DNA of 57,237 nt, filler included, from Sphacelaria rigidula (taxonomy: Eukaryota): NCBI GenBank assembly GCA_964200075.2. It is 4 parts of 4 records of this genome, joined end to end, with 100 filler letters (N's around TTAATTAATTAA, not from the genome) between each part and the next. Parts side by side here need not be neighbours in the genome. Positions count along the whole stretch, not along the records: positions 43,006 to 57,237 come from CAXNAA020002367.1; 3 more parts are not named here. One strand, written 5' to 3'. Of this stretch, positions 18,036-57,237 are shown piece by piece; the first letter of the stretch is position 1, and each line of letters begins with the position of its first letter. Position numbers and translations under genes: made by a program. A model generated the notes under the pieces. It made no database searches. It had not been told where the DNA came from and saw only the letters and a list, made by a program, of their open reading frames with translations.

Positions 18036-18089
<54 letters not shown>

Positions 18090-22516: not shown

Positions 22517-22561
<45 letters not shown>

Positions 22562-35700: not shown

Positions 35701-36153
35701 GCTATCGCTGCTTCCATTACTCGTTTGATAATCAGTCCACGTGTCGACCGTACGACCATGCCGATGACCCTTGCTCGTGGTCGGTGTGCTGGCGGGAATC
35801 TCTGCCCATTCTACAGGCCGAAGGGTCCATACTGAGAGTAATAACTGTGCACCTATGACAGGCGTACGTGTGATCATGAACCAAACAGCAACCAATTTGG
35901 TATCATTTCTTTGTATCATCCGAATGTTCCTCCGTGCTCACAAAAATATACTGAAAAATTCTTTCATATAATTGAACGATTCCGAGGGCGATGAGAATAG
36001 ATCACAGACCGTATATTTATTTTACTGTTATATATTGGGGGCGTTCGACACGGTGAAGGACGGGGGGGGGAGCACTCTCCACTTTTGGGGTATTGTTGTT
36101 GTTGTTGTTGTCTTCGCATTGAAAACCATTCCGATATCTGCGGAGTATACAGA

Positions 36154-36857: not shown

Positions 36858-37048
36858 CTCTGTACTCTGTACTGGGCATCTGTTGCGGACGCCTTCGGTG
36901 GTCACAGGCAAACGACCCCAAAATAGGGTCAAGAAAAAAATCGGACCCAGAAAAAAATCAACATTTCACACAGACGCTATACAAATAACTACTGTATTCG
37001 ACACGGTTTGTTGCCCCGGAACAAAAATATCAAAATATCGCCATCGGG

Positions 37049-37108
37049 TCTAGCCCCCTTTCCGATTCGCTTGGCTTCTTCTAGCCCCCTTTCCGATTCG
37101 CTTGGCTT
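37049..37108. repeat. 31-bp tandem duplication
   Basis: tctagccccctttccgattcgcttggctt at 37049 and 37080. Confidence 0.9.
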
Positions 37109-37562
37109 TGAGGTTTCGAGAATGGCCTCTGGACAGTGATACGGTTGGACAGAAAATGCGGTGTCTGCAGGTATTAATTCGATATCCTGTTCGCTTGGCC
37201 TCCGTACAAGAGTACTGCTTGACAAAAAAATGCTGTGTCTACATGTAGTCGTATGGACTGCAGACGTCGCGTTTTTTTGTCCAACCGTATTTTTGTGCCT
37301 TGGCCATTTTCGGAACCCCGGAGTCAAGCAAAACAAGAACATTGGCTAGACTCCTCTCGGTGGGGTGGTGCAAAGTATCCAAAACTGGAGAAAAAGCCCC
37401 CGGAGAAACTCCAACCGATAAAAACGGTCTCATCAGTGCTCTTCCTCCAATCAGGAGGGTGGCAAGAGTTGAATCGTCACAATCGTTCGCATTCTCAAAG
37501 TTGAATCATTCTTGAATTATCTTGATGAGGCGGGGTCCTACGAACACACACGCATGGATTTA

Positions 37563-37723
37563 GGATTTGTCTTATCGAGACAAAAAAAAGAAGCGAGGAA
37601 CCAAACAAGCATCCAAAAAGATTGAACGTTGATTGCTTTTTCTCACCCGGCGACCAGTCAACTGCTGTTTAACCCTCGTTTCGTTTCTCACTTTTTTTCT
37701 TTTTGTCTCGATAAGGCCATGCC
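37563..37723. mobile_element. Small MITE (possibly Tourist/PIF-like)
   Basis: TIR core cttatcgagacaaaaa / tttttgtctcgataag; flanks tta / ttt. Confidence 0.6.
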
Positions 37724-38926
37724 TTTGAGCGTGTCTTGGCACATATTTTTTGCATCATAAATGTGCGGTGGAAATATTTATTTTGTTCTGATACATCCCA
37801 GAACACGCACACACCACTCAAGATATGCTGCATGCAAGCAGTGCAGACAGTACAGACTGTATTGTATAGTCAGTACACACGTGACCATGAACCGTTTCGC
37901 GAGTTTCACTGTCGTTTCTCGATCGAAATGGTCAAAATTCGCTGGGATCCAACTCGAGAGGAATTAACAAATTTCGCTCAAATCAATTCCACGGCCTCAT
38001 TTTTTTGATCGAAAGATGAGGTGCTGAGACACGCCCGAAGACAGAGCCTCACGTGAAGTGATCGGCCTCCTAATTTCCTGGTCGACACTTGTTGTGGTGA
38101 ACGTCAAAATGGGGGGTACATCTTTTTTCAGCCGAGTGGGGAGATGAGGAAAACAGGTTCGCGCGTACCCCCCAACATGCCTCAAGTTCAATGCAGAGCA
38201 CGGAAACTAACGTTTTTTTGATGGCGACCAGTGCCGTGGCGCTGGCGGGTGTCAACGAGTACCCCCCTGTTGTCCACAGTTTTATTTGGGGTGGGGGTAT
38301 GCCCCCGCATCTTTACCGAGTATGTGTGTTATCCCCCTTTGACCACCTCGAATCGCTCTGAAAGTTGGTCGAAGCGTCGCCTTTGAAGCGCCCGACCACC
38401 AACCATGGAGGTTGCTCCCGACAAAATCCATATCACCACAAATTGACACATTGAGCACAACCAAAGATAAAAAGGATACTTGGCATGTGGAGATGCGTGG
38501 AAATGGGCGGCACAACCAAAGATCCAAACATGGGACAACCTTACGCTTAACTCTTCGACGAGAGTAGGTTAATTTCACCTGATACGAGGATAAATAATCC
38601 AGATGGACTACCATCGAGGTCTAAGGAATAAAGACGCGTTGAAACGCACCGCATAACCGAAGATTCAAACATGGCACAGGTTATGTGTAGATAGGGAGCA
38701 GGGCAGGACCCGTCTTGACCCGTTGGCTCCCAGCCTCGCCTCGGAACAGTTTCATCTGCTGCTGCCGACGTCCAGGAACATTGAAAGGTTTCCAGAGGAC
38801 GAGGCGTAGATTTATGAAGGGAAGGTGGGTGCCTGTTCGGAGCACAGCCGAAAAGCCCACGAAGTCAAGCATAAGTGTATGAAAGTTTCCCGCGGAAAGT
38901 TCTTAGCCAAGAACGAGACCCGAGAG

Positions 38927-40226
38927 TAGAGCCGAGTATCATATCAACTTTTCGAGATATAGTGTACGAGTATCTCTATTACCCCTCCCGAAAAAGGTGA
39001 TATGTCGTAACAGTTTATATATTCGTCGTCATGTTCATATACCCCCCATTTTTCCATACATCGCTATGAATCTGATATATTTAGGGTATATGATATATAG
39101 GGGTATATAGACGATATATATATACTATACATATACTATATATTACGTGATTTCTGGCCTGTGTGACGTGTATCACCTGGCATGTGACCTATTTAACCTA
39201 TGTGGAACATAATACTTTTACATATATAGTCCGACCTTCAGGGCATGTCACAGGTCAGGCGGCAGGCGGATATTATGATACAATGCTCCTTCGGCCGATT
39301 GCAACTGGACGAACCCCGACCGTGAAATCAAGTCAAATAAAGAAAAACTGCATCAAATCAAAACATCGAAAGTTCAGGTGCAAGGGAAGACCCCTGGAAG
39401 CTCGATTCACCGGGCACGGAGTTGCACTACTCCACACCCTGGACAATATATGGTCAAAAGATGCAATAGACAAGAAGTGTACTGCACAAAGTATAGGCCT
39501 ATTGTAACTACTGCCGGCCGACAAAGTTGCTGTAGGCCTATACTTTATGCAGTACGTCTCTTGTCTAATGCAGCTATTGACCATATAGTGGCCAAGGCGT
39601 GCACTACTGCGAAACCCCGAGAAAATAAATTTCACGCCACCCGCTAGATACCTCCCGCTCCCCTCTCGTTACGGGAAGCACGTGCCGATCCTCATTCGGT
39701 AGTCTCTACTGCTTTTGCGCTAATTATTTTGCAATAACACGGCCGTGGAGGACTGCAATTACCACAGATGCTGGTTAGAGTGCAGGAAAATGATGTTTAC
39801 GGCGTTGTCGTCTGAAAGACTCGCGAGTTTCGCGGTGATGGTGTTCCCTGCTACTTGATAGCGTCAAAACTTCACGTCAGCAATAAGAGTCTGATGGACG
39901 TGTGCGTCCCCATTTGTGTAAAGTAGGCGGTCCAAGTTATTGCGCACTGTATAGCACATTGCATCGATGAAAGCCGATATCTTACATGCATCACGTGATG
40001 CAGTTATATATACAGTGTAGATCACCTGATATGGGCTTATATAAGCAACAAACTGTTCAGTATCCCCTGATATAGGCCTACATATCATATACCACGTATC
40101 ATATACCCTTCTAGTCACATTTTGCTGAGGAGGCTCCATATAGGGTATATGATATAAGGTCATGAAAGATATCATTTAGTGTAGGAGGGTATATATACGC
40201 TAGGCCTATATCTATACCAGGCTCTA
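38927..40226. mobile_element. Non-autonomous hAT element (1.3 kb)
   Basis: Perfect 8-bp TSD cccgagag at 38919-38926 and 40227-40234. TIRs tagagccgagtat / ataccaggctcta. TATA-rich subterminal regions. Confidence 0.9.
39433..39601. mobile_element. Hairpin MITE nested in the hAT element
   Basis: ~70-bp imperfect inverted arms (cacaccctggacaatatatggtcaa... / ...ttgaccatatagtggccaaggcgtg). Flanks cactactc / cactactg match at 7/8. Confidence 0.82.
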
Positions 40227-42905
40227 CCCGAGAGGAAAGCAGTGTCCACGTTGATACTTTTGATTAGTCAAAATGGTCACCATGTTCCCGCTCAGATGGA
40301 CTCCAGATGAACTACCTTGTGGCGATGCCGTGTTTAACCGTTTGGGTGATTGCCGCTGAACCGTGAAGAACAGAGGGAAAAGGCGTGTGCTATTTACTCT
40401 GCTCGTAGTCTTTGCCGCATGCCTGGTCCCTCGTGTTGCCAGGAGAACCTCAGGTTGTAGTGTTATTGTGGAGTACTAAGCGAAGACATCAGGGGTGTGC
40501 CTTAGACTGTGATCAGTGGAGAACGATGGCGCGCTGACTTTTTTACCCTTGTGTTCAGCAACGGATGATGGGAAATGCTCGCATGAACGGTGGGGTAGCA
40601 ACAGAAGCTGTGGGAGCGGTACAGAGGCGGCAAAAAAGGGAACACAGTTGAGACGATTTAATGATTGCGCAAGATCAAAACATGCTCCCGGTGTGCCAAC
40701 CCTGCTGCGAACGTAGACTGTTCGGTGGAGAGCTCTGGCACACCGACTGTTTCTTACCATTGCACTCAGCCACTCATGAAAAAAGTTCGTATGTATCCAC
40801 GGTGAAGTAGCTGCAGCAGTGCACGCAGTAAAAGAGGGAGTACAACCAAGCGGTTTGACCTGTGTGCAAGATGAAAACACACTCGACGTGTGCCAACCCT
40901 GCCCCGAACGCGCAAGGAATGCTGAAGAAGTATAGGTGGGCATAGTTCACGTGAGGTCACCCGCGGGGGGTTCGTGGTCAAGGGACTGACAGCATAATCT
41001 ATTGTCCAGCGTGTCCAAGCGTCACATACATGGTCTTGACCACCAATGATCTATTCGCGTGTCATCACATCATCACGTTTTTAATATAGTGTCGGAAAAC
41101 GTTTTTTTAAATCTTAGAGTCAGAGTGGAAGGAAAAATAGCCGGTAACGGTGCACTTTCCGCTATAAAGTGTCTTTAGAGCGATTTTCATAGTTCACAGC
41201 GGAACGAAGGAGAACGCCCACCTTCACCACCACGATCACAACCAGTTCAAAATCAATATACCCTATCAAGCTAAGTGAGACATCTATCATACCTGTAATC
41301 CTCATCACAGAGGACCATCCGCACAGTAGAAACGCTTTGCATCGCAACCAGAAGATCTCTCTGACGCTGCCACGGTGGCATCAACATTCGCTTGGTTACG
41401 ATGAGTGAAAATTCAAATGCTCGGTTGGGTGCACTTCCTTATTTTTGCCAGCTTCAGCTGGCAGAAGACGGTGTAGACGATTCGCAGTCTACAACGCATA
41501 AGCAGTACTACACCTGGCTACATCGCCATTCCGTTAGAGTTCATGACGTCTTGCACCACCGTTACGGGTGGCATGTTGGGAAATCATCACGATGCGACCT
41601 TGTCTGTTGTTTCAAAGTGCTGCTGACTCTTGTGCTGTGCTACTGTACATTTGGCTGTACGGTATCGCCCTAGTTCACCGTACTGCCATGTACTGTTGTT
41701 GTACTGAAGGATTCTCCATTGCACTCTCTGTACTGCACGGGCTGTACTCTACACTGCGCAGCACCACAGTACCCTGTGATGCGCCGTGGTGGATAGAAGT
41801 ACTACAGGTGCAATGGAGCTTCATGTACGGTACGTACTGTGCCGCAGGGTATGGTACAGTCAATGCTTTGTTTAGCTATGCATTTTCGGACTCCACGCAG
41901 GTCGATCGCACGTTTGGCGGCACAACATGGGGTCAATCACGGCGAAGAAAAGAACTCCACATCAAGCCACGTCACATCAGCTTTCGCTACGAACTCTTCA
42001 GCGTCCACTCTGAAGTTTCAGCGCTTCCACTTTGCACTCTGACTCCACGATGAAAAAATATATTTTCCAAAACTCTCTAATATCTCTTTTTTTTTGCCCC
42101 AAATAAGAAAAGGCGGGCGTGTTGTCGTGATCATAAAACTGTGAAGCGTCACACACTCATTAACATCATCGCAATCTTATTTTCATTTTTTTATTTCCGT
42201 CGATCGAGATGGGACGCTGGGTGTATGGGATACACTTTGTTCCTGCGTTGATTCTAAGCGGTCGGCGAGGAGGCGGCCGTATCACCTCTTCTGCTGCACC
42301 ATCTCGAGGCAATCTGCTGTGGCACCATAACTCCTCTGCTGCAAGTGCTTTCGCGCCTGCGTCGATCAGGGTGAAACGCATTGTTGAAGGCGACACGTAT
42401 GCTACTACCGACGACTTCACAACGACCGGTTTAAGTTCCCTTGATAATTTACAATAACTGAGAAAAGCAGCTGGCACGAGGAGAAGAAACGGCCTAGCCT
42501 TACCGAACCGGAACTTCGCCACACTGGACTGGAAAGCAGTGTTGCACATCGAATATCGATAATCGATATGATTTCGATTAATATAGGTGATATGCCATAT
42601 CGGTATCGGAACGTGAAAAACCGATAAATGTGATCTTTATCAATATCGAATATCGATATTCTCGATATATATATATATATATACTCTTCACATGAGCTCA
42701 ATTTCTCGAAACCGTCGTCACAGTAAACGCAGGGGGTGGTATTCCCCGAACGGCAGATCCCCAGTCGACAACTCTTGCAGCCCCCCATCCCTCACTCCAC
42801 AAGCTCCCCTTGACATTGAGTTTGCGCATGTTCGTTTTGACACCTTTTTCTTTTCTAATGAATGAGCAGAGTCGAGGTATGCGCTCCTTCGATCGGAACA
42901 CACGG

Positions 42906-43005
42906 NNNNNNNNNNNNNNNNNNNNNNNNNNNNNNNNNNNNNNNNNNNNTTAATTAATTAANNNNNNNNNNNNNNNNNNNNNNNNNNNNNNNNNNNNNNN
43001 NNNNN
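42906..43005. other. Artificial scaffold linker (N44-TTAATTAATTAA-N44)
   Basis: Same 100-bp structure. Confidence 0.98.
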
Positions 43006-43029
43006 TGTACCCATTCCCCCCCTCTCTTA

Positions 43030-43700
43030 TGCTCCGTCTCGAAAGGGATGCGTGGTCAATGGTCAAATGACTAAGGCAAGCAACAAATGAGTACGCCCCT
43101 CTCTTTGTGGTCGTTTTGTTGTTTTGTATTTTTTCTGTTTCGATGGCTTTTCACCCGAAGTATGTCATGTCCCGGGTCGGCGTGGGCGTCACGCCGCCGA
43201 CTCCACGTACTGATCTGCAGTACGGTCGCGCCCACGGAAGACCGAAAGCTAAACACGACAGAAGATCAACAGCAGAAAGAGTTCGCCCCGCCGCCTGCCG
43301 CTGTACCCGCCCCCCCTCCCCCCCCCTCTTCCTGTCATTCACAATGGTCAAACGACTAAGGCAAGCAACAAATGAGGACGCCCCCCTCCCCCCTCTTCCT
43401 GTTGTAGCTTTGTTGTTTTGTATTTTTTCGGTTTTGATGGGTTCTTACTCGAAGTATGTCATGTCCCGCGCCAGCGTGGGCGTGACGCCGCCGACTCCAC
43501 GCACTGATCTACAGCACGGTCGCGCCCGAGCGAGGCCGAAAGCTGAACACGGCAGAAGAACAACAGCAGCAAGTACCCGCCGAGAGGTCGCCCCGCCCCC
43601 CTTCTGTTCCAGCTGTATTGTTTTATATTTTTTCGGTTTTGATGGGTTTTCACCCTTTTTATATTATGTCCCGCGCCAGCTTGGGCGTGACGCTGCCGGT
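43030..43700 (+). repeat. Tandem ~285-bp unit (two copies plus a partial third); the two full units start with the LINE 3' end
   Basis: LINE ends at 43030-43099 and 43341-43393. The segment ...ttttgtattttt...tatgtcatgtcccg...ggcgtgacgccg... recurs near 43110, 43405 and 43615. Confidence 0.85.
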
Positions 43701-44729
43701 GTGGCCACCCGAATAGAACAGGCGTCCAATCATCTCAATCACCATGCGCATTGTGGCAGCTGGAACATTAGCTACACTGGAAACGACGAGACGACCCGTG
43801 GGTTACCATCCCCACATCGGGCGACGGCACCACCAGTATCCTTTGTCTATCACCACTCTCCTCCAGCTGTGGATTTGATCTACTGTCAGAGATCTGCTGA
43901 TGGTGCGTATTTGATCATGGGCATGCTTCCCTTCTGCTGAAATGTAGCATGGTTGTATCCGCTAGCTAGCGTGCACGAGCTTTCAGTAGTGGTACAAGAC
44001 TCTTCACTCTGCACCATACACGAGCACTACGGCAGGAGAGACGAGGGGAGCGGCAAAGGCGGGGTCGCATAGGAACACGGGATACGATGTACGTGTCAAC
44101 TATTATAGTATAGCTGAACCAGATATTTAAACCAAGGAGTAAATCAGAAAAATTACAGGGTTAGACGTATTAGCGCTCATGTCTCACCCCGGCACAGCTT
44201 ACGAGTGAGAAGTTTTGCTGAAGCGGTGCGGTTGTCAGAGAGCTGAATCGCGAACCTTCTCTCAAGACCTCATCCTTCGTTCAGCGTGCTCAGCTGGAGC
44301 CCTTGTCGAAGCCTGTCGGGGTGTGTCTAGAGAGCAGTGCTAGATGTTCGTCTGGAGTTTTCTTATTTTTCGTGAAGATTTGAATCGACGATGTTCATAT
44401 GTTATCATTTCGTACTCGATTTCATGTCAATTCTCCCTCTTTTCTCAAAGTTTGCTTTTGGCGAGTGTTCCCCTTAATACTACCTCGGGTATATTCATAC
44501 CGTGACACGGTTGGATTCGTAGCGAACACGTTGACGTGAGAGATCAATCAATCAGTCATTCAACCATTTTCTGGAAGATAACAGCGTGTACATTTGATTT
44601 GCCATACTCGGCTTTTCCCCCGCCACACATTCGCCCCCCCCCCCCCCCCGGGCAATGATCATATGACTATGGCATGCAAGATCATGAGAACGCCCCTTCC
44701 CTTCCTCGGGCCGAGTGTGTGCTCTGATG

Positions 44730-45102
44730 TTTTTTTTTCTCACACTTTGAACCCCTCCCCTTCCCCGGGATGAGTCCGTGGTCTCAAGGGACCAATCCAT
44801 CTCTCCCCCGGTATGATGTAATGGCGTAATGGTGTAATGGTGTAATGGTCTCAAGGGATCAACTCATATCTCCTCCGGTACATGGCTTGCATTTTGGTAT
44901 CGCGGATTGGATCATGACTGTAACACTCCCGCACCGCGTCAACTCTCGCCAAGTGAACAACTTTATTTGCCACTTACGTCCCCCCGTTTTTATTGACGGA
45001 CGTCGGATATTTGTAAAAACAAATAAGTGCGTATGGCGGGAATCGAAACCGCACACTTCCGACCTAATACGCTTCGATTGCAGTAATTAGACTACCTGGG
45101 CG
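44730..45102 (-). mobile_element. tRNA-derived SINE with A-rich tail (other body copies at 6609-6750 and 7140-7290)
   Basis: On the minus strand: cgcccaggtagtctaattac (A-box-like), gtttcgattcc (B-box-like), and a body ending cccttgagaccacgg...gggaggggttcaaagtgtgag + A9. Confidence 0.7.
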
Positions 45103-45715
45103 CGGCGACTCCACTGCAAGTAGATGGCCGAAACTTGGGATAAACACATCTTCCATGCAAATCGGGTCAAACCCCGTGGCGCTTTTGCCACGTAGACGTA
45201 TTACCAGTTTGGTCGAAGAGTCCCGACCAATTTTCGTCGATACGATCAAATATGGGACTGATGTCACCACATTCTTTCTTCGGATATATGATGTATTAAC
45301 ACACCACTGAGGGCCCAAGATTCCAGGAATGACATGCATAAGAATTCAGAAAACATTGATAAGCATATCTTCGGAGGATGGGCTTACATGGTTCGCCCAA
45401 CAACGAGTAAATCGCCTCCCCCGGACGTTTTATTTGTGAGGGGAGGAGGCATCTACCGTTTCGACTCACTGCAGAGATCTGGCGATGTGCCTGGCCACGT
45501 CAGATTATCAAGTAATTTTTTCTCGCAAATTCATGACATTGTAATCCGCTCGCATCCTCACCGTGCGACAACTAACACTCCCCCGTCAGAGTGCTCAAAG
45601 GGACGCTAAAGAATTTCAAAGGGTGGTTTTAGTATGGGGTAGCATCCGGGGTAAGGTGCTTTGGGATGTCCATACCACAGGTATCCATCCTGGAATATTT
45701 TGCACTTTTAAACCA

Positions 45716-45773
45716 ATGTACCGCGCAGATATCGGAACGGCTTTTAATGTGAAGACAACAACAACAACAACAA
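45716..45773 (+). repeat. Retroposon-like 3' end with (CAA)n tail (reverse copy at ~36093-36150)
   Basis: cgcagatatcggaa(c/t)gg(c/t)ttt(t/c)aatg(t/c)gaagacaacaacaac is present in both copies. Confidence 0.7.
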
Positions 45774-47000
45774 TGCTCGATACGGAAGGTACTGGAAGAT
45801 ATCAAGACACGTTGTGATGTCGGTGCCTGATATTCCAGGTACCCTCGACTACTTGGTGCCTTCGACATTCGATATCTCACGTACTCTGAAATACTAAGAT
45901 ATTCTGCAGATACCATGCGGCACACGGTACTGCATATACTGTGAAAACTCAGGGTAGTGCCGAGAGGTATGTAAGCCACAGAATCTTCAACCCCGTCCGC
46001 GTCCAAGTAGTCTCAGTGCTTTCGTACGTTCTCGGGAGTGCCGGCACACCTTTAGCACGATTAAATGTTGTGCTGCACATAATTCTAGCCGGACGGTGCT
46101 GTATGGAATGCATGCCAGAATGCTCGGTTCTTCGGGCAGTCGGTACCCCAGGTTATCTGGAATACTCGGTGCCTCCGGCGGTTGATACTCCAAGCACCGT
46201 GGAATAGTTAATGCTTGACGCTTGATGCTGCATGCGCCCTTGAGAAATAAGATTTCAGTACCCGGGGTTCGATGCCCTGCCCTTACCACCCGCGAAGGAC
46301 TTAGTCCGCCCAGATGGAAAGGAGGGGGGCCGGCGCAAGCTGATCGGGCAGGGAGAAGACGTTATAAAATATCTGTCACGTGCTCCGGAGTATCGGGTTC
46401 TACTCGCAAAAGGGAAAGCACAGGAAATGACACCCCTCACCCCCAGGTGAGGATGTGTGGGGGGGATGGTACGAACTACACGAACCAAAAGGGTGCTGTG
46501 CGTACTTCCCGGTATTGTTTTTCATGTGTCAAATATAATCGTCGTGAGCAGGCGACAAGCCGAAACGACACGTGGCAAGCACTGTGCGTGTTCACATTAC
46601 ATGGCCCGACTATCGTTTTTCCTCCTCCTTTTTTTCGCCTCTTTTTGTTTCTTGAAAAAATATGGAGGTATCTACAAACATGTTTCAACCACAACAACGT
46701 TTCTTTCAAACTTGTGTGTTGAAAAATGCATAAGAAGTCATGATCAAACGCCATGTGGGGGCGATATAGGTGCCTACCGTATACCACAACAGCAGCAAAC
46801 CTCACTCTCAAAGTCAAGTGCTATCGAACACCAGCAGATAAGACCGATGCAATCAAAGCCGACACTCACGTTGCCGGAGATGTGGCTCGCTGCGTCCTCA
46901 GCCAGTCTCCAACATGTTTCGCTTTCGCCCGCGCGTCTTCACCCGCCACAGACTCCTTGTCCCCTGAGGATGGCCGGGGGACAGCAGGCGCAAGGGGACG

Positions 47001-48010
47001 CGGGGAGGGGGGGTACTCATTTGTTGCTTGCCTTCGTCGTTTGCCATTGACCACGCGCCCCTTTCAAGACGGAGCACCGTTCGTAGTCCTAATAGAGACG
47101 CCTCCAACATTCCAGCGCTCATTGCGCTTTATCCATACCCCACACTGGAACCTCCTACATATCTTATCCTCGTCCTATTTCGCCGTCTGTGGCCACCATC
47201 TATCTCCTAGTGCAGTCATCGCCTTTTCGTACTGTCTAACGCATCAAATGATTTTACGTCACTTTCGCCTACTACCCACATTTCCGTCTCTGATATGCCC
47301 CGTTCCTCCGCGTGTAGTTCGCATCCTGCCACTTTATGGGTTCTATTCTCTATTGCTTTGCCACAGGGGCAATTTTATGCATATTTTCCCTCCTCCACCC
47401 TGCCCGTTCGTCCTTTTCTTCCATTACAGCCCCATCAAGTATGACTGGAAATCGCTTTCTCTGCATATTCTTCACGATATATTGCCATTTCGATTTTTCA
47501 TGTCTGCTTCAAGTGAGTGCATTCCCAATTCTGCTCTCAATGCTTTATATTACTCGTCGTTTGTGAGCATCCAAGTATTTTCTTAGCTGCTGTCATCTGT
47601 ACTGTTCCCAACTTCTTTACCAACTTCGCTTTTCCCTCCCATACTCCTCCTGCATGTTTTAGCTCTGGTACAATCACACTCATCAGGATAAATATCTTAT
47701 TCCTAGTATCCAGGTGCGAGTCTCTGAGAATCACGTCCACCCTGCCTATTTGTACATTTCCTTTTCTATTACTTTAGTCATGTGTGCACCCTAATAACAT
47801 TATTTTAGATCTCGACGCCAAGGTATGTATACTGGTCTACGATCGGCAGTTCTTCTTTTTCCCACTTCCATTTGAACTCCATCGGGTTCTTCTAATCTTC
47901 GTTACATACCAATACCGCACATTTGTTGACGTTCGCTGTCAATCTCCATTTCCTAGTGTATTCTAGCGCCTGCTCTATGTGTTTCTGAAATCCCTCTGGT
48001 GTTTGTAATC
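47001..48010 (-). mobile_element. 5'-truncated, decayed LINE (non-LTR retrotransposon) ORF2 3' portion ending in a C-rich tail
   Basis: Translates with stops and frameshifts. RT C-terminal region: TPEGFQKHIEQALEYTRKWRLTANVNKCAV...YTYLGVEI and IVPELKHAGGVWEG...KKLGTVQMTAAKKILGC. CCHC knuckle: CPCGKAIENRTHKVAGC. Terminus: ...NG(Q)TTKASNK* gtac cccc. Confidence 0.9.
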
Positions 48011-48035
48011 TGGCAGGGGGAGGGGGGAGGGAGGC

Positions 48036-48518
48036 GGGGGGGTGTACTCATGATCTTGCACACCTTAGTCATAGGACCATTAACCTCGCATCCCTACAAA
48101 GCCGGGACGGAGCACGTCGGGTTTTAGCCGGACCAGGCTCGCAGTCAATCACTCAGCGCGAACTACCGCGATGTGTTCGGCGAGTCGCGTGACGGGTGAG
48201 CTTCATCCTGCTAAGATTGTTCGGCCCGAAATGTACTGAATATCTTGCATATGGATGACAGCCTCCAATTGCTTCATTTTCTGGTATCGCCACTTCCAGA
48301 GACAGCCACGGCCCACACATCGTCTCATGGGTGTCTCACCATCTACACACTACGTCGTATGATCATACCCTTTGCGCGGAATGAAGGTTCTCCCACCCCG
48401 CACAACATGATGTAGCTCGACCACCATCATGGTTACCAGAAAAAAGAAGCAAGCGCAAAACAATTACGCCGTGAGTGGCGCGTTTTGCAGCGCCGTTGCC
48501 AACCGACGCCAACCCCAT
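48036..48518 (-). mobile_element. ~500-nt SINE-like element directly upstream of the LINE remnant
   Basis: Full-length family copy; G-rich tracts at 48016-48042 and 48519-48555. Confidence 0.87.
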
Positions 48519-49498
48519 GGGGAACGGGAGGGGAAGAGGGGGGAGAGGAGGGGGATGGCGAAGGTGGGTGCAATGAAAAGGCAAACCTACCAAACCTAGT
48601 ATAGTTCAGTAGGCATCTTGCCCGCTGCTGTTTGGCGATTCCGTTTGCAAAGGTTACAATTTTCTTCTTCCGATTGTTGATCCACGAGCACGTGCGCAGC
48701 GGGCAAAACAACCGGTGGGTGAGGTGTGTACGTCACACCTGCTCACAACGCGATACCGGGTATTGTGTGTACTGGAGACTCGGTTAATATATGGGCTATA
48801 ATTAGTGGCTGCGCTGCTAGCTCTCGCCCGTATCTGCCCTACTGTGATATCCGCTCCCAGAACTTGTCGCGCTCTTTGTCCCCAGCTCTCAATATCACAT
48901 TAGAACCGTGTTTGCCCTCCTGTGGGAGCATACCCAGAGGATGACATTTTAGCTCTCAAGTCAGCAAGCTCGAGGAGGAAATCGAACCTGGAGGAGATCG
49001 GACCTGGTGCAAAAATCCGTACCCCCAGGCTCCTTTTGTGGTTCAAGGGACCCAACACGAACTGGAAGGGCTTCGACGAGAAACGGGGGGGGGGGGGGGG
49101 AGGGGAAGGAGGGGAACAACCATTTTGGCGGGGAAATTGTAACGCCACCTAAGGGGGGGACCCCCCCATTAGAAGGAGTNNNNNNNNNNCTGGAAGGGCT
49201 TCGACGAGAAACGGGGGGGGGGGGAAGGGAACGAAGGGAACAACCATTTTCGCCGGGAAATTTATAAGCTACCTTAGAGCGGTAGCCGCTCATTAGAACG
49301 AGCTGAATGATTTGATCAGCAAGAACGACAAAGCTGCTGAAAGAGGGAACTATATAGTGGGTTCCATTTGACACGATCTACACGAAGGTTGGAATAAAGA
49401 CAGCAGGAGTTCATCAATGTATGTGAGAGGACACGTTGTATCACGGTCTCTGTGCCCCAAACATGTGCTTCTACAACATTGAAGATCCACCCACGCAC

Positions 49499-52400
49499 CG
49501 CTTCCTGTGCCGGCCGTACTGCGCCCAAGTCCTCCGGCACCATGGGGCATGCAGCCGCCCCCGCCGCCCCCGCCGCCCCCGCCGCCCCCGCCGCCGCCAC
49601 TCCTCCTCCGCCCGATTCCTGAGCTTGACGCACTCTCGCCACTGACCCGGTCACAGGAACAACGCGCTTTGGCATATGGCGTCCTCTGTTGTTGCCTGCT
49701 CCTGAGTCTTCCAGCGATGCAGGGGGTCCCGAAGCCGCGACTGCTGCTCTTCCTTCACCCGATGCTTGACGGCGCTTTGTCCTTCGGTATTCTCCGTCTC
49801 CTTCTCCATCCGCATGGCGGCCCCTCTTCCTCGATCGGACCGCCGATGCTGCGGGTGCTTCCATGTGTGCTGTGGCGACACTCTGTTTTTTCCGCGCGGC
49901 ACGCGACGGATTCCTACGCCCTACCCTCCCCCCTGTCGGTGCGGCCGTGCGCGTATCCTGCCTTGTGACACGCGTTTTCCTGTTGTTGATTGTTCTCCCG
50001 CCACATTTTTCTCCACCACCACGAGACCTCGCTCTCAACACCATACCGCTGCCTTTTCCAGGAGCGTCGGGGACAACCAGACTGTTACTTGCGGGTGTAT
50101 TACAGCTGGATCCTGCCGCCCCTGACTGGCCGCTGCCCAACGCTGCGGCTGCCGCCGTTTCTACGACTTCCTGCGGCAGTGCCGAGGTAACCTTAAAAGC
50201 ATCGCTTTTCGTGCTTTCGCACCAGCGCTGCACCAAGCCAAGCGACACGGGAAAGGAAGAGCATAGCCATGGAGCGATGAGCAGTTAGTTGGACTCTGAA
50301 ATTTCGATACTATAAACGGGCTGGTTCAGTGTCGCATGAGGATAGACCACATACACGTACTGATCTGCGCAGCGACCTAGTCACACGCCTAGCAGACAGC
50401 TTACTGTATAACGATGCACCCTGCAGCTGGTAACGGCGCAAAACGGAACAATCAGAGCCTTCTGTACCCTACGTTGTGACGGTAGTACGCACCAGGTAAG
50501 GCTCGCAATGCGAGACCTCAGCCACACTCCAGCGCGCCGCCAGCTCGCGCGTCACAAGGTGGGAGACGAGCTCAAACAGAGCTGCCGAAGAAATAAAGCA
50601 ACCCGGTGTAGGGATCAACGGGCAGTCGGCGAGCGCGGCACTGTAGTAGTCAATATCTCAGGAACATATTTTCGGCTGAAAACAAGCTTTTCAGCTTTTT
50701 CAGCTACCGAGATTTATCTCAGTAAACGTGCAAATCCAAAAATGACGGACCGAGAAATATGAGCACCCCGTACGACTTTCCGACAACACCAAAAAGTACC
50801 GTTAATTTTGAACAATACAGGCTAACCGATTGTTGGGGTCCTACAGGTATATAGCTCCCCGTTCTGGTTCTTCGATATTCTCCGCGGTAGAACCAGTTCC
50901 GATCGTTGTGGCAAACAATCAGAGCTCCATATGGTTCATATATTTTTTTCGTACATACTCCTTGTGCTACGACTGAAAAAACGTATCATCGAGCCACATA
51001 CGGACAAGAATTCCCCCCCTCCCTAAACAGGATTTTACTGCGTGTTGCCTGACAATACAAGTACTCGGCCTCGCTACTTTACCTATGCCTTCCGATTCTC
51101 GTCTTTTCGGTTGAAGATGACAAATCGCCACTGAAATATTCCCGAACAAGTGACTCCAGTGCTCAAACGATGACTACTGCTGTACTTATGTTAAGCGATC
51201 CAGGCAAGGGAAAACGAAAAGTGCGTTTGTGAATATTGTTGACACCCCTCTGGGAAACCACACAAGTGACGCAAACAGTACCACAGTGTACGTTGTGAGG
51301 CAGGGTTCACACAAGCGAACATCTTCGACTGAAAATGTGCGAATTCAGTGATGAACTATTACGTCTCTCCACTTGGCGTACTCGGTGTACCGATGGCCTT
51401 CCGACCACCTCTTGAACAAGACCCCGTCATGTGGTAGGTTTGAAGCACGCGTGTGCGACTCACCGCTGTCTCCGTCGTTCAGCCAGTCTGGCTTCGTTAC
51501 GAGGCCGGTCATGTGGTGGATCCTCCATCCTTTGTAGTCCGCGATCATTGCACCCAAAGCGTACGCATCAGTCTTCCAGCCATCTTTGCCGAAGGAACCC
51601 CACCGAGCCTCCGAAAATGCCTTGGTCCTCTTCGCCGTGTTGATGAGATGCTGCCAAGGTCACCATGATAGACAATCAGGACCGAAGGGCGTAAGAAACC
51701 TGTGGAACCATCACCCCTCGCTACGCACCGCGCCAACAAAATGGAAAACACGTTGGTCTATACCTAATGAGGTGTCTGTGACGCAAAAAACGTACAACGT
51801 CATAACGATGGGTTGTGTGTTTGACAGCTGTTGCTTGCAGCAGAGTCGTTCATGTCGCGAGGAAAACGAAAAGTCCACGCGGAACCTGTGATGGAATCAA
51901 ACTTCTGCAGTATGTCATGAGAAACTTGCGGCACAACGACTTACCGTCGGCCGTTTTTCTAGCACGATGGCTAACAACAGCATAGGACAAAGGAACGGCT
52001 GTCTCTTGCACGCCGAAAAGACCACGCTTCATGCGGCACGTACTCACCACTAGCGGATCAACTCTGTCCGGCGTGATCCGTTCGGGGATTGGGAACGTTC
52101 CGTGGGCCTAGCATCAGGACACGGAAATATCAAGAAACGCAGGGATCGTGGCGAGCAAAGCGTTGTTGGTCATGCAAGGGTTTGTTGACATGATACAGAG
52201 GATGGCTCAACCATCTCAGACGTGCAAACATGCATTGTCAACCGTACATAGCGTTCAGTAGTAGCAACAACATGAGGGATATAGTGGGCTGGAACTCTGT
52301 TTACCATATCGTGCCACGGCACTGCTGATTCTGCACACAGCGTGACCCATCTGCAAATGATCTCACTGTACTAAAAGAAATTGCGTTGGGAAGATATCAC

Positions 52401-53555
52401 CCGTGCTTGTGGTCCTCAGTTGGGGACACCAAGTAGACTCACATCTTTGAACGCTGCGTTTCCGAAATCGACTAGAGTGGCCAGGCATCTTGGAGTGCCA
52501 TCGACGGTCTCGAACGAGTACACAATGTTATGTTCTGCCACGTCTCCGTGGGTCACTTCCGTGTTGCCATGAATGTGCATCAGGGTGTTGAGCACCTGCG
52601 GCGTAAGGACGGGGGGAGTGATAGGTGAAGAGCCGAGTAAGTACGTTGGCTGTCCAGTTGGCAGGCGCCAGCGTATTTCTCGTCGGTTGGTGAAAAATCC
52701 TCCAAGCTTCGGCCGAGGCATACTCATGTAGCATGGAAACTACAGGAATGTCGACTCTACCGTAGTGTTCAAAACGGCTGAAGCAGTGACCAGCCCGTAA
52801 GGTACGATAAAGCTCCCAGCCAACAGACAAAAAGCCCGGACAATATGCAGATGCCAAACCAGGAACCTACCTGCATAAAGACGTCCATCACGTCTTTTGA
52901 CGACAGGATGGGTCTGCGATCGCGCTCCAGGCACTTGCGGAATTTCTCGCTGATGCGCGAAAGAGAAGACGCGGGGGAGGACGGGGTGTGTGTGTGTGTG
53001 TGAAGCAATCCTGGGGAAATAAGTTTTGGTATTCGAAACCGCGATGTCAAGAACCAACGATATCTTGGGTGGGATTAATCCCACTCCACAGGAAGCAATA
53101 CAAATACCCGTCGAGTGCATCACCCACGACAGGTATCTCAGTCCCTGGAGCGAGCTCACCACACTTTTATGTCTATGGTGTCACTCATCAATAACTCCTT
53201 TCACCCCAAGAGTGCCACCAAAGGGCATGACATTCCAGCAATGTCATACCCTTTGAGCGCGACGCGGTTGCTATCGGGTAGGCAGTCGTGGTCATGCACG
53301 CGTCTGCAACTGTGCGCGTCAATCGAGCACAGTTAACCCAGCCGAACCACCCAGAGGACCACCAACCACAGGTACGGTATACCTTCCACCGTTTTCGAAA
53401 ATGATGGCGTTGGTGTGGCCTTCAGTGTTCTTCACGTATCCAAGCACGTGGACCACGCCGGGAATGTTCGCGCGTCTCATCGCTATGCTCGCGTACACTT
53501 CCGACTCGAATGAGTTCAGCTCTTCCTCCTTATCCAGCAGCTTCACGATCTTATC
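49499..53555 (-). CDS. Divergent multi-exon protein kinase-like gene with a basic low-complexity C-terminal exon; 5' end and some internal exons unresolved
   Basis: GT-AG exons carry kinase subdomains in order. 53555-53383: IVK...FESEV...IIFENGG. 52949-52871: LSSKDVMDVFMQ. 52595-52443: LMHIH...THGDVAEHN...LVDFG. 51650-51464: KTDAYALGAMIAD. 50581-50517: LVTRELAARWSVAE. 50227-49499: Arg/Ala/Gly-rich tail. Confidence 0.72.
52443..52595 (-). CDS. Kinase catalytic-loop/DFG exon
   Basis: cag|GTG...AAAGAT|gtgagt, 153 nt; HGDVAEHN (HxDxxxxN) and DFG. Confidence 0.8.
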
Positions 53556-56500
53556 CTGACGCGTGAATCAAATCCAGAAATGTTATGATGCGACGCGACT
53601 GCGGCATCTCGGATGAAAAAGAAACCAGTAGGGGTCGAGCTTTGAGGGGAATCGTATTTGAACGAAACATTGTACCTTCCTTCCGAATGGTGAGTTCTTT
53701 CCAAGGGTACTGATCGCCGTCCTCGACTTCGCCCTCTGTACGGTACATAAAAAATTCAGCTCACAAGGGCAGTACTTACCGAAAAAAGGGCCTACGTCTG
53801 ACTCGTGCGCGCTGCAGGCTAAATAATGATGAATATCCCCTTATTACCAGTTTTCTTTTCGAAAATAAGGTTGAACATTAAGGTGAGGCTCAACTTCAAG
53901 GCGGTGCCTTCCCTGACCTGAAGTAATGACAGATGTCTTTCATATGGACGGCCCCATGCTCCCCGAGCGAGGCGACCTGAAGTTTTGGTTGTATATCTAT
54001 GGTTTGTTTTTTCGAACAAACTGACAATAACGCTAACGCTTAGGCTAACCTCGACCCGAGGCGTACGAGACCCTCGGGCAAGGGGGGTCCATAGGTTCTC
54101 CAAGGGAAAGTGTGCATTGGCAGACCTCAAATAGACGCCGCAGGCACCGATTTCGACAAAAATACCTTCTGGGCAAGCTGGGTCCACTGCTCACCTGCCC
54201 TAAGCCATAAATTTTCTCAGAACTTTCTCAACGTTAGAATCAAGTACTTATGTGTTAAAACAAAGATATACGACCAAAGCTTTAGGTCTACTGCCCCGTA
54301 ACACACAAAACACATACTAATGCACATACTGCTGTACATACCACCCGCATCTCCTGCCGCAAAACTCAACCAAATATAACATCATAGAGGAGATCCCGTG
54401 ACACAAAGTGGCATCGTGTATCGACAGGTGTGATCCCTTCTTCTTTGAGGCGCTTTCCGGTTTAGAGTAGTTAGGACAGCCCGCAGTGTGCGACCCAAGT
54501 GTGATCCCACGAGAAATGTGTGCAGTAGAGTTCATCATTCGGACGTCTTTAGGATCTTCATGTGGTCTTTACATTATTTCAATTCAAGTTGGCTCCCTGG
54601 GATACAAGGGGAACATGTTGCCCCGGTGCGGCACTTGTCGTGCCGCAACGCGTTCTTATTCAAATCGGCGCCAATTTTGGGAGAAAATGGCGCACGCTAT
54701 TCCCAGATTTAATCCAAGTGATCAGATACAGGAGACTCACGTTATGTAGGTCACGAGTTTGAATCTCGACAAGTTCTTCTCTTTTTCCGTTCCGTCGTTA
54801 AGGTCGTATATTATGCAGGCCATTTTTTTCATTTTTTTTTTCATTTTTTTCTTCATTCAGCGCCGGTGCCGTGCATTGCAGGTTGGTCTGCAGTTCACAG
54901 GGATATGCTCAAGTCGGGCTGCTTTGGTAAACTTGATCAGTTGTGGTGTGACATGCAAATGCGGAATTTACTCTGCTGACCCAGCTCGTTTCATTTCCTT
55001 TCTCTACTGTACTATTTTTCATCCATCATTGATTTTTTCTACACTCACGTACCAGGGGGGGTTCATGCTCCCCCCCGCTCCCCCCCCCGCCCCACCCCCC
55101 CTTCCACGCGCATCAGAGGGGGGTACCCCCCCTCCGACGCCACCTCCCTTTACGCAGGAGTCAGCATATAGGATCGGCTTATATAGGAGTTTGTATACTG
55201 TAGTGTTTGGGAGCAGGGGGGGGGGGGGGTCTAGTATACTCCACCCCTCCCTTGAGGGTGGTTCAAAATAAGAGGAGCGGGTGCGTAGGTGTGGAAAAAA
55301 ATATTACTTCGACGAACACCCCTTTCAAGCCCCTGTCTGTAGTGATATAAACAGTCGATCATTCATTTTGAGGATGGAGCTTTTCATTGAAGATGAAACC
55401 CAGAGAATGGAATTGGTATGGATGCGAAGATTTTACACTCTTCCGCCAAAAAAAAAAAGCAAGTCAACTGCCAAGATGCCCCCGCATACAAGAATCGTAT
55501 GCACCTCATGTATCTTTCGACGGTTTAGCAGGGTTTAGTACTGTATTTTCAGAACATATCAAGCGTTACTTTGCTTGTGGATTTCTCCGCCGTATCTGTT
55601 CTAACCAGCCTGAAACTTGGCACAGAGGTAGACCGCAATGCAGACAGCATATTCCCCGATCGGCGGCACGTTTTACGTGGTGCGCCAGACGCACGAAGCA
55701 AAATACGAATTTTGGGCAATGCCATCGATACGCCCTCAAAACGCAGTCCCCTCGGCCCAGCTGCGTGAGACGTCAGTGGATGCATATGTTGACTTGCAGA
55801 TTTGCTCACTTCCTGCTGGGTGACTCCTGCCCCGGCAAACGAAGCACAGCGATCCGTACTAGGCACAATCTGGATGATGCCATTCTACGCGGTATCGATC
55901 TTGGTATCGCCTGTAGAGGTGCTCACTTCAGGAGACACGGCCGTGCGAGCGCTGTCAGTACTTTTACGCGCTGAAACTTCGACCACATGTCATGTAGATA
56001 ACAGACAATAATCCCATCTTGCTGAATCTGGGGTTGCGCGGTGTGTGCGTGCGTATTGGGGCAAAAATATGTCGGATTCTGTTCCGAATTTTTCTCCTTT
56101 TTTTTTTTTTGGCACAAGACTGTTTATTTCTCCGGGTTTCCATCCTCGATGAAGAGCTCCATCCCCAAAATGGATGGTCGACTGTTTATTGTGGAACACT
56201 ATATGCGAGTAGAACTAAGTAGTCTACAGGGTACCCGAATGACCGTGTGTGGAGACATGAGTAGCATGCAGTAGGCTGTTGTGCTTAGAGTGAAGCCGCG
56301 GTAGTTCCCCCCCCCCCCCGCCCACCAGCCCCAAGACTGTTACGAAGAAAATGGCCATACAGCGCATGATAGCTGGTTTCAGACTGTACGAAACGTTTTT
56401 GATGGACGAAATTGGCGAAAACGATCCCAGGCGTGGGAGTCCCCAACTGATCAGATCCGTTACTATCGACACTGCTGTTTCGGAGATCCCTGGAATTTTG

Positions 56501-57237
56501 GGCGTTTTCAGAACCGGCGCTCAGCGATCTCCGAAAATGAATCGGCTTGATTTTTCTCCGAAGCTGCACGCTGGGAGAAGTCTGAACACTTCGGACTGCA
56601 GCGCAACACTTCGCAGTGCTGCCCTGTGAGCACGCCGCGACTCTCGCGAGCGTGCGATAGTCTTTCAAAAGTTTGCTAGTTACACCCTGGGACACGCCGT
56701 AGAGTGAAAAACACCGTGGATTGGCGGTGGCCATCTTCTTAGACGGCGTGTGCGTCGGCAGCGGTGGTTGAGCTGTTGGGGTCAAGGACGATGGTCGCCG
56801 TTTGCGGACGTGGGCACTTTCGAAGCAAAGAGCAGAAACAATCCAGTAGCTACCTGCTTGCCTGCTGTACTGCTACGAGTGTACGCTACCGCACAGTCTG
56901 CAAATTATATAGCTGGTGGTGTGGTGGGTGTATCGGCGCATAGCCAGCAAATAAATCTTGATCATGGTATCTCAAACTCGGCTCCCGGTATCATCCTGGT
57001 TTGTTTCGTTCAATTTTTTCAAGTGATGGTGATGAGACCCTTTCACCGGCAGGTCAGGTCCTCCTATGAATCGCGATCTCTTTCACTTGAAAAAATAGTA
57101 CACAACTCAGGGCCAGCGAATAAACCAGGATACCTGGATACCTCTGATAATATGCATCGTTGGGAGCTCTCCTAAAAACAGTCAATCATCTATGTTGAGG
57201 ATGGTGCTTTTCATTGAGGATGAGAACCCGGAGGATT

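Follow-up and report, generated by a model that had tools for sequence, protein, structure and literature searches.

A truncated RTE-X-like LINE in Sphacelaria rigidula with a probable element-borne C tail and a preference for C-rich target sites

A stretch of Sphacelaria rigidula DNA (57,237 nucleotides in four joined pieces of assembly GCA_964200075.2; hereafter, the window) holds at positions 47013–48010, on the minus strand, what is very probably a dead, 5′-truncated copy of an RTE-type (RTE-X-like) LINE with an element-borne (C)n tail and C-rich targets.

Results

The first-pass annotation had read the locus as a reverse transcriptase (RT)/CCHC remnant, and tblastn searches with P0160, a full-length relative described below, agree with this reading. 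Window positions 48005 to 47040 aligned with residues 924–1353 of P0160 in five frameshifted pieces of 45–79% identity, with about 100 residues internally absent from the copy. The remnant, which we assign to family A, begins just past the RT active-site region and lacks the first (5′) two thirds of the element. It retains the C-terminal part of the RT, a CCHC knuckle (CPCG...H....C) at about 47330–47374, and the C-terminal peptide. Pfam searches with the five ORF fragments of the copy recovered no families because the sequence of the copy begins only past the Pfam RT core. The 1-kb body was found only once in the window by blastn. In sense orientation the remnant ends in ...AATGGCAAACGACGAAGGCAAGCAACAAATGAGTAC, followed by CCCCCCTCCCCGCGTCCCC. 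The stop codon of the LINE ORF (TGA, 47017–47019, minus strand) is separated by GTAC alone from a decayed C-rich tail (46994–47012, minus strand; sense CCCCCCTCCCCGCGTCCCC), a tract of 19 nt with a C fraction of 0.75 over the first 20 nt.

A homologue search with a 78-amino-acid fragment returned two short proteins, and a profile search of a representative library yielded 482 matches, nearly all of them short fragments. Through an 806-amino-acid match in the latter (P0069), we reached the full-length relatives P0160 and P0161, and the closest named protein relatives are from Ectocarpus sp. CCAP 1310/34. In both full-length relatives, one ORF encodes an APE-type endonuclease followed by the RT (Pfam domains Exo_endo_phos, residues 170–414, and RVT_1, residues 740–989, in P0160; identical order in P0161). 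The closest PDB sequence matches to their RTs are the L1 ORF2p and R2 reverse transcriptases. Their C-termini read ...NGAPSRKG(C/R)VVNGQMTKASNK, which is the peptide that the last 65 nt of the copies encode. Indeed, the 19-residue peptide that had been read earlier from the cleaner copy at 43030 is identical (100%) to the last 19 residues of P0160. As judged from these two ORFs, which end in the peptide from the last 65 nt, the element has virtually no 3′ UTR. The spacing of about 5 nt originally proposed between stop and C run is also accurate: TGA is followed by GTAC and then by G, A, GA or nothing. After the stop, GTAC(G/A) and (C)n make up an extremely short, simple-repeat 3′ UTR, a trait of RTE-type elements (PMC2887409).

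To count copies, we used a profile of the 3′ end (nhmmer, E<1e-3, whole window), which found exactly 13: eight of family A and five of a second family (family B). The eight copies listed previously all exist and lie on three of the four unlinked pieces. That account needs amending in that the copies at 43030 and 43341 occupy adjacent units of a tandem repeat of about 290 bp and share their downstream flank; it also overlooked family B and the restriction of the sequence common to copies to the last ~65–75 nt. Recovery of family A was lower with blastn (seven of eight, with 19308 missed) and with a 37-mer allowing at most three mismatches (four of eight, against none expected by chance). All 13 copies have in common the 3′ end ...GAGTAC (or a variant), with lengths of 31–998 nt in family A and 42–484 nt in family B. 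This constant 3′ end, the variable 5′ ends and the presence of TSDs support the proposal that the copies come from a LINE using target-primed reverse transcription.

A C-rich tract, defined as a C fraction of at least 0.65 in the 20 nt following ...GTAC, comes after 11 of the 13 copies, against a background frequency of 0.008. The claim that all copies end in C runs holds for six of the eight family A copies at this threshold; the copy at 43030 has only C4 before its TSD. Neither a poly(A) nor an L1-type A-rich tail was detected, as a run of at least six A was found within 100 nt downstream in none of the 13 copies. The 3′ flanks past the tail are unrelated except for one paralogous pair and one pair with another common repeat, and the copies therefore share no further conserved sequence beyond the C run. 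Tails are on the sense strand of the element irrespective of the assembly strand (five copies on the plus strand, eight on the minus strand).

The family A copy at 5887–5951 (plus strand, 65 nt, found by blastn and nhmmer), in which the terminal GAGTA is replaced by TC, bears on the origin of the tail. Its 12-nt TSD, TCTGTCCCTCGC, is present as a 5′ copy (5875–5886, plus strand) and a 3′ copy (5970–5981), and the element is separated from the 3′ copy by a C18 run (5952–5969, plus strand). Only CCC precedes the 5′ copy, and the tail therefore arrives with the insertion. The two copies that match the 37-mer with no mismatches carry pure C19 and C11 tails. One (14200–14238, minus strand) is cut by the end of piece 1 and has the tail G + C19 (14180–14199); the other (20018–20082, minus strand, 65 nt) has the tail A + C11 (20006–20017), and neither a C-rich 5′ flank nor a TSD was found for it. 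A fourth copy (2044–2074, plus strand, 31 nt) ends in GA + C9 (2075–2085). Among the least diverged copies, tails span C9 to C19.

This variation in length could reflect an untemplated tail, added either by a nucleotidyl transferase that C-tails the RNA or by an RT that adds G to the primer before copying. The one or two variable bases (G, A, GA or none) between ...GTAC and the run fit such an addition as well. However, length variation is equally expected from slippage on a template, as proposed for the tails of RTE elements in the account given by PMC2887409, and we regard an untemplated origin as unlikely.

Family A lengths, measured from the 5′ junction to ...GTAC, are 31, 37, 44, 65, 65, 67 and 998 nt; the eighth copy, interrupted by the piece end, is excluded from the list. 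The clustering of three of the seven measurable 5′ ends within 3 nt (65, 65 and 67 nt) could suggest that the 31–67-nt copies constitute an independent, very short retroposon whose own 5′ end lies about 65 nt from the tail. The other 5′ ends, at 31, 37, 44 and 998 nt, do not follow this pattern, seven copies are too few to define a preferred start, and the 65-nt sequence is the in-frame end of the LINE ORF. A separate short retroposon is thus improbable, and we treat the short copies as 5′-truncated copies of the LINE. The 37-nt copy at 19308–19344 (plus strand) has a C7TC5-6 tract on both sides (19290–19302 and 19346–19358) and sits between two RPB1 exons. An RPB2 exon of the host has its best matches in Laminaria digitata (87%) and Ectocarpus (82%).

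Family B consists of non-coding sequences of about 480 nt that have only the last 65–75 nt in common with family A (~81% identity over the last 63 nt). A full-length copy of about 475 nt, non-coding and thus non-autonomous, with an A-like 3′ end of ~65–75 nt, is located next to the LINE remnant (48044–48518, minus strand). A second full-length copy (24804–25287, minus strand, 484 nt) starts at the identical 5′ nucleotide. At its 5′ end it borders directly on the tail of the next copy (25323–25475, minus strand), which is 5′-truncated to 153 nt and has a C-rich tail from 25322 to about 25288, so that the two form a head-to-tail tandem. The remaining copies are truncated to about 407 nt (7369–7775, minus strand; C-rich tail at 7351–7368) and 42 nt (44650–44691, plus strand; C16 immediately upstream, 44634–44649). 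A tRNA scan of family B identified no tRNA as its head, and an Rfam scan identified no known RNA head, with one sub-threshold chance match. Because just the 3′ end and tail are common to both families, family B is very probably mobilised in trans through the shared 3′ end. We considered a stem-loop at the shared 3′ end and dropped it: its MFE is no better than that of shuffled sequences (z = +0.84), and none of the 11 pairs predicted in the consensus fold covaries through compensatory change.

The 5′ flanks indicate that C-rich sites are also preferred as targets. A C-rich 5′ flank (C fraction of at least 0.55) is present in nine of 12 copies, against a background of 0.018, although these counts are partly dependent: the sites at 43030 and 43342 are paralogous, and two of the 5′ flanks are tails of earlier copies. 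The 5′-side C tracts noted in the first pass at 5890, 19308, 43030 and 43341 are all present, and 47013 has one too. The remaining three of 12 flanks have a C fraction of 0.2–0.3 and no C run, and C targeting is therefore a preference rather than a rule. Insertion into the tail of an earlier copy is frequent and produces head-to-tail tandems. For example, the C-rich tail of the full-length family B copy at 48044–48518 (48012–48043, minus strand) doubles as the 5′ flank, and possibly as the CCCCCCTCCCC duplication, of the LINE remnant at 47013–48010.

Clear TSDs flank three copies: 5887 (12 nt), 43030 (10 nt) and 43342 (9 nt of unique sequence plus a C tract). The 65-nt copy at 43030–43094 (plus strand) has the TSD CCCCTCTCTT at 43019–43028 and 43096–43105. 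The next copy (43341/43342; 43336–43379, plus strand) measures 44 nt, including 7 unexplained nucleotides at the 5′ junction, and has the TSD ...TCTTCCTGT at 43327–43335 and 43394–43402, with C6-7 T C6-9 before each. A C run marks the start of the TSD at 43030, 43342 and 19308. The TSDs at 19308 and 47013 are nearly all C and T, and they are ambiguous since such sequence is indistinguishable from tail. No TSD was found in four of the 12 copies (A2044, A20082, B7369 and B24804).

The tandem repeat that contains the 43030 and 43342 copies provides a paralogous empty site. Two boundaries of this three-unit repeat hold the 65- and 44-nt fragments, whose TSD variants differ, and the third is empty. 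The empty site (GCCCCGCCCCCCTTCTGTTCC, 43590–43610, plus strand, in the third 290-bp unit) contains a C6 run and no LINE fragment. Thus, C enrichment is seen both in the empty site and in the 5′ flanks. We rejected the reading of the 43030 and 43342 copies as one insertion that was later duplicated because the TSDs match within units (TCTCTT versus TCTTCCTGT) and the fragments have unequal lengths.

Target preference could in principle account for the tails on its own if the element had none and always inserted just upstream of a pre-existing genomic C run. The C-rich 5′ flanks of nine of the 12 copies and the C6 run already in the empty site are compatible with this possibility. Furthermore, at 43342 and 19308 the complete C6-9 T C5-9 pattern is present to either side of the copy, and the tail inserted there may therefore be near zero in length. 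Against it are the unequal C runs before the two TSD copies at 5887 (C18 and CCC), the 20082 copy, whose 3′ end carries C11 while its 5′ flank lacks C, and the entries of the Ectocarpus annotation, which assign '(C)n 3′' to the consensus (PMC12477816). We consider pure targeting very unlikely. The original alternative between a poly(C) tail and targeting of C tracts is therefore best answered by both: the C18 run within the TSD speaks for the tail, and the C-rich TSD starts, empty site and 5′ flanks speak for the targeting.

The window is rich in C/G homopolymers, with 11 C/G runs of at least 12 nt versus two A/T runs. Recognisable copies are touched by 12 of the 49 C/G runs of at least 7 nt (a count that includes the 47007–47013 tail, added manually) and by three of the 11 runs of at least 12 nt. 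These fractions lend little weight to the earlier suggestion that the element explains the G/C runs of the genome. That the homopolymers are sequencing or assembly artefacts, as two N10 gaps within long G/C-run clusters (6506–6515 and 49180–49189, with flanks duplicated across the gap) and two window pieces that start or end in C runs might suggest, is hardly credible given tails that are always on the sense strand whichever the assembly strand, that lie within TSDs and that are independently reported in the Ectocarpus annotation entries (PMC12477816).

Discussion

Nearly all well-studied LINEs have poly(A) tails or tails of A-containing short repeats. The L1 endonuclease, for example, cuts at TTTT/AA, and the T-rich primer pairs with the poly(A) of the transcript. 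The active Sphacelaria element very probably has one ORF, composed of an N-terminal region, an APE-type endonuclease, an RT and a CCHC knuckle, that reaches to within 4–5 nt of the 3′ end, with a (C)n homopolymer replacing poly(A). By analogy with L1, we propose that the endonuclease would nick the bottom strand within or beside a G run, and the freed G-rich 3′ end would then pair with the C tail of the RNA and prime inside (C)n; any poly(A) further downstream in the transcript would therefore never be copied. Homopolymer slippage would vary the length of the tail. Subsequent C>T/G/A substitutions could convert tails to C5-7 T C5-7 patterns.

Several features liken family A to L1: a homopolymer tail, TSDs whose first base is the base of the tail, insertion into older tails, extreme 5′ truncation, an APE endonuclease ahead of the RT, and the best PDB match of the RT. 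It differs from L1 in having a tail of C rather than A, a single ORF where L1 has two, and no 3′ UTR. The existence of a partner with the same specific 3′ end also suggests that the 3′-end sequence is itself recognised, unlike in L1. LINEs with this kind of recognition are termed 'stringent'. Strictly repeat-specific LINEs, such as the microsatellite targeters of the R1 clade, insert only in their own repeat, whereas three of the 12 copies in the window have no C-rich 5′ flank.

Family A has a C-terminal CCHC knuckle, which classic RTE elements are not known to have. The likeness to the RTE clade is otherwise extensive, as described in PMC2887409: one ORF with APE and RT, a minimal 3′ UTR, short 3′ copies and a tail between the TSDs. 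In the lepidopteran RTE LINEs BmRTE and HmRTE and in C. elegans RTE-1, the 3′ UTR is only a simple repeat right after the stop; many copies retain just the RT C-terminus and the repeat, which, located between TSDs, seeds repeats in the genome (PMC2887409). RTE elements differ in having di- or trinucleotide tails and sites that are not sequence-specific (PMC2887409), in contrast to the C homopolymer and C-rich targets of family A.

The closest counterparts are in Ectocarpus. Any claim to novelty lapses here, as (C)n-tailed RTE-X LINEs with C-rich TSDs are already entered in the 2025 TE annotation of this alga (PMC12477816). Its supplementary file 1 describes RTEX-1_Ec32 as 'single EN-RT ORF; (C)n 3′' with a 'C-rich' TSD and RTEX-2_Ec32 as '(C)n termini/TSD' (PMC12477816). 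The same catalogue lists a partner, RTEX-N1_Ec32, of 607 bp, that 'can be present in tandem' and has '60 bp 3′ end 83% RTEX-1/RTEX-2' (PMC12477816). Thus, as far as these annotation descriptions go, the Sphacelaria element is a further example of the recorded brown-algal RTE-X type, and we place it beside RTEX_Ec32 for its single EN-RT ORF, (C)n 3′ end and C-rich TSDs. Its membership of RTE-X, for which we use the term RTE-X-like, draws on the blastp notes of the catalogue and the matching features (PMC12477816). Family B parallels RTEX-N1_Ec32 in the shared 3′ end (63 nt at 81% compared with ~60 bp at ~83%) and in tandem arrangement (one tandem pair in the window), and differs in length from RTEX-N1_Ec32 and RTEX-N2_Ec32 as catalogued (~480 nt versus 607 or 188 bp).

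Other catalogue entries in PMC12477816 also pair a tail repeat with a preferred target repeat: RTE-1_Ec32 with (CAA)n, CRE-1_Ec32 with (CA)n, and unknown7-N1_Ec32 with 'C-rich termini / insertion sites'. This match between tail and target, as described there, is consistent with tail-target annealing. These elements have other repeat units, and CRE has the order RT-EN and a different endonuclease. In the main text of PMC12477816, the terms 'C-rich' and 'homopolymer' are absent and the C tail is not discussed. Our literature search for a poly-C LINE tail, which covered spellings other than the parenthesised 'poly(C)', returned no relevant paper, and papers on RTE-X/RTEX, judged by title, offered no information on tails.

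Because the basic fact is already recorded for Ectocarpus, the value of the Sphacelaria locus is mainly confirmatory, and it probably extends this system to another brown alga. The catalogue entries record the tail and the C-rich TSDs without mechanism or genomic consequence (PMC12477816); the evidence added here is a tail inside a TSD, an empty paralogous site and two independent insertions at one C run. A (C)n LINE with C-rich targets constitutes a natural experiment on the pairing of tail and primer in target-primed reverse transcription. C/G runs can form G-quadruplex or i-motif structures and break assemblies, as in the two gaps in the window, and the element could explain some of the C/G homopolymers carried by brown-algal genomes. 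A broader and more tentative proposition, which we hold to be possible and somewhat short of probable, is that this lineage swapped the L1-style A/T priming for G/C pairing, its endonuclease or RT choosing bottom-strand G runs that anneal to a (C)n RNA tail, and, together with its abundant non-coding partner, may be a main source of the unusually frequent long C/G homopolymers in brown algal genomes.

Coding end of the LINE and its full-length relatives

The feature at 47001–48010 lies on the minus strand, and its sense-strand end reads ...GGTCAATGGCAAACGACGAAGGCAAGCAACAAATGAGTAC followed by CCCCCCTCCCCGCGTCCCC. Full-length open reading frames (ORFs) of its relatives were reached from short-fragment searches via P0069, a protein of Ectocarpus sp. 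CCAP 1310/34, which led to P0160 (1360 amino acids) and P0161 (1328 amino acids). Both carry an Exo_endo_phos domain (APE endonuclease) followed by RVT_1, and their best PDB sequence matches are the L1 ORF2p and R2 reverse transcriptases. Positions 48005→47040 aligned by tblastn to residues 924–1353 of P0160 in five pieces with differing frames (45–79% identity), and ~100 residues were absent from the alignment. The shifted frames and missing residues mark this copy (47013), judged from its sequence, as a dead, 5′-truncated LINE remnant that starts just past the RT active-site region. It retains a CPCG...H....C knuckle, and blastn found no second occurrence of its 1-kb body in the window.

P0160 and P0161 both terminate in ...NGAPSRKG(C/R)VVNGQMTKASNK. 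Exactly this C-terminal peptide is encoded by the final 65 nt of family A, the LINE copies with a common 3′ end (100% identity for the 43030 copy), and the ORF therefore stops 4–5 nt ahead of the C run. Thus, the first-pass annotation was correct in describing a LINE with almost no 3′ UTR.

Copies in the window and their genomic setting

The eight family A copies proposed earlier are all real. A 37-mer found four of them with up to 3 mismatches (0 expected), blastn recovered 7 of the 8, and an nhmmer search with a 3′-end profile matched exactly 13 sites in the window at E<1e-3. These sites are the eight family A copies and five copies of a second element, family B (7369, 24804, 25323, 44650 and 48044). 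Only the last ~65–75 nt are common to the family A copies.

The four pieces (1–14238, 14339–28572, 28673–42905 and 43006–57237) are unlinked and ~14.2 kb each, and no feature can be read across the N44-TTAATTAATTAA-N44 spacers that join them (14239–14338, 28573–28672 and 42906–43005). One family A copy (14200–14238) is cut short by a joint. Two others (19308–19344 and 20018–20082) are bracketed by two exons with Pfam matches to domains 1 and 2 of RPB1, the RNA polymerase II largest subunit (17104–17556 and 20589–21014, both on the plus strand), and are therefore most likely inside RPB1 introns. The host is a brown alga; the first (N-terminal) exon of RPB2 (29208–29687, minus strand) has its best matches in Laminaria digitata (87%) and Ectocarpus spp. 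(82%).

A C tail that arrives with the insertion

In 11 of 13 copies, the 20 nt past ...GTAC had a C fraction of at least 0.65, against a background frequency of 0.008 for such windows; the other two have C4 and then C/T-rich sequence. No A6+ run was present within 100 nt downstream of any of the 13 copies. The sequence past the C tract is unrelated between copies except for the pairs 43030/43342, which lie in paralogous repeat units, and 44654/7369. Tails are pure (C19 and C11) in the two copies that match the 37-mer exactly, and more diverged copies have C5–7 runs broken by T or G, a pattern that fits decay from an originally pure homopolymer.

The copy at 5887 shows where the tail comes from. 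It is flanked by a 12-nt target-site duplication (TSD), TCTGTCCCTCGC (5875–5886 and 5970–5981). C18 (5952–5969) separates the element from the 3′ copy of this duplication, and only CCC stands ahead of the 5′ copy. Hence, this C run came with the insertion. The first-pass annotation had offered a templated poly(C) tail or targeting of C/G tracts as alternatives; a poly(C) tail and such targeting both apply, because the tail is demonstrated at 5887 and the targets are C-rich.

C-rich targets and proposed mechanism

Nine of 12 5′ flanks reached or exceeded a C fraction of 0.55 (background 0.018). C runs also start the TSDs of the copies at 43030 (CCCCTCTCTT), 43342 (43336–43379; C6-7 T C6-9 TCTTCCTGT) and 19308 (C7-9 T C5-6). 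Two of the C-rich flanks are tails of older copies (A47013 behind B48044 and B24804 behind B25323). A strict C-target rule is contradicted by three of the 12 copies, whose 5′ flank is not C-rich, and by four of the 12 in which no TSD was found.

A ~290-bp unit is repeated in tandem about three times over 43006–43900, and the long stop-free frame at 43071–43940 is a read-through of this repeat. Family A fragments of 65 and 44 nt occupy two of the three unit boundaries, each within its own TSD variant, and the third boundary (43590–43610) is empty and reads GCCCCGCCCCCC. One insertion followed by duplication of the unit could account for the two fragments. However, two separate events that hit one and the same C run (43030 and 43342) are more likely, because the TSD copies agree within each unit and not with the other unit. 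In the 43342 copy, seven nucleotides (CATTCAC, 43336–43342) separate the 5′ TSD from the point where homology begins. They match neither element nor target and may be untemplated or template-switch sequence.

The anatomy of the elements is observed directly, and we infer cleavage site, annealing and slippage by analogy with L1. The bottom strand would be nicked in or beside a G run, and the G-rich 3′ end of the nicked strand would anneal to the (C)n RNA tail and prime cDNA synthesis inside it. Cutting of the top strand 6–12 nt or more downstream would generate TSDs starting with C, and homopolymer slippage could produce the variable tail lengths.

A probable non-autonomous partner

Family B is non-coding and about 480 nt long. 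Its two full-length copies (48044–48518 and 24804–25287) have their 5′ ends at the same nucleotide, with a C-rich tract ahead of each, and the remaining three are 5′-truncated. Its likeness to family A is limited to the last ~63 nt (81%) and the type of tail. Scans of family B for a tRNA or another Rfam head found none, and no support was found for a conserved RNA structure in the common 3′ end. Most simply, family B is a non-autonomous passenger of the LINE machinery via this common 3′ end.

Family B also contains a near-copy of its own 3′-terminal motif ~190 nt upstream of its end (GCAAGAT.AT.AGTAC versus GCAAGATCATGAGTAC; 48230–48245, 7554–7571 and about 25000), which may be a relic of internal duplication. 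The 3′ flanks of B44654 and B7369 have 83 nt in common (44730–44812 and 7205–7287; 82% identity) at differing offsets from the tails. This match belongs to a different repeat family, which has C-rich segments (...CACTTTGAACCCC(T)CCCTTCC...) and lies next to both copies.

Contribution to C/G runs

The window has 49 C/G and 56 A/T runs of at least 7 nt, and 11 C/G versus 2 A/T runs of at least 12 nt. The suggestion that tails explain the abundant G/C runs holds only partly in this window: 12 of the 49 touch a recognisable copy, seven as tails (47007–47013 included) and five as 5′ flanks. Only 3 of the 11 longer runs touch a copy, and the largest clusters (6416–6569, 49085–49224 and 55055–55229) have no link to copies.

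Two of these clusters surround assembly gaps. The N10 gaps (6506–6515 and 49180–49189) sit among G12–G16/C10–C11 runs (6380–6580 and 49040–49300) with about 40–117 nt of flank duplicated across each, and probably reflect homopolymers that are hard to assemble, or haplotypes that were not collapsed. At 55040–55232, G7, C7, C9, C7, G6, C7 and G14 runs alternate densely in 190 nt, and this cluster has no LINE 3′ end in its vicinity. The longest homopolymer, C25 (14411–14435, within 14386–14446), has the arms of a short inverted repeat on either side (CACACGTTTTT ... AAACATGTGTG) and no link to a recognisable LINE copy.

Relationship to known elements

The C tail was proposed as a potentially novel property, but it is already on record for homologous Ectocarpus families in the annotation of a curated TE library (PMC12477816). 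RTEX-1_Ec32 (5867 bp) is annotated there as ‘single EN-RT ORF; (C)n 3′’ with a ‘C-rich’ TSD, and RTEX-2_Ec32 with ‘(C)n termini/TSD’. The non-autonomous RTEX-N1_Ec32 (607 bp) ‘can be present in tandem’ and has a ‘60 bp 3′ end 83% RTEX-1_Ec32/RTEX-2_Ec32’; RTEX-N2_Ec32 is 188 bp. Compared through these annotation descriptions, families A and B agree with the RTEX families in all testable features. The same source lists RTE-X as the most abundant LINE group in Ectocarpus (16,418 copies, 3.41% of the genome) and RTEX-N1 as its most abundant single family. The C tail is not discussed in the main text as accessible, which gave 0 matches for ‘C-rich’ or ‘homopolymer’. Our literature searches, which excluded the spelling ‘poly(C)’, turned up no further account of a LINE with a poly-C tail.

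The general architecture, in which an ORF is followed by a repeat-only 3′ UTR and copies are reduced, is shared with lepidopteran RTE elements. As described for these (PMC2887409), a single APE+RT ORF has a simple repeat directly past the stop as its 3′ UTR, many copies are cut down to the RT C-terminus plus repeat, and the repeat lies inside the TSDs and seeds microsatellites. The biological reading first proposed for the Sphacelaria rigidula elements is largely right, in that tail and target preference both exist.
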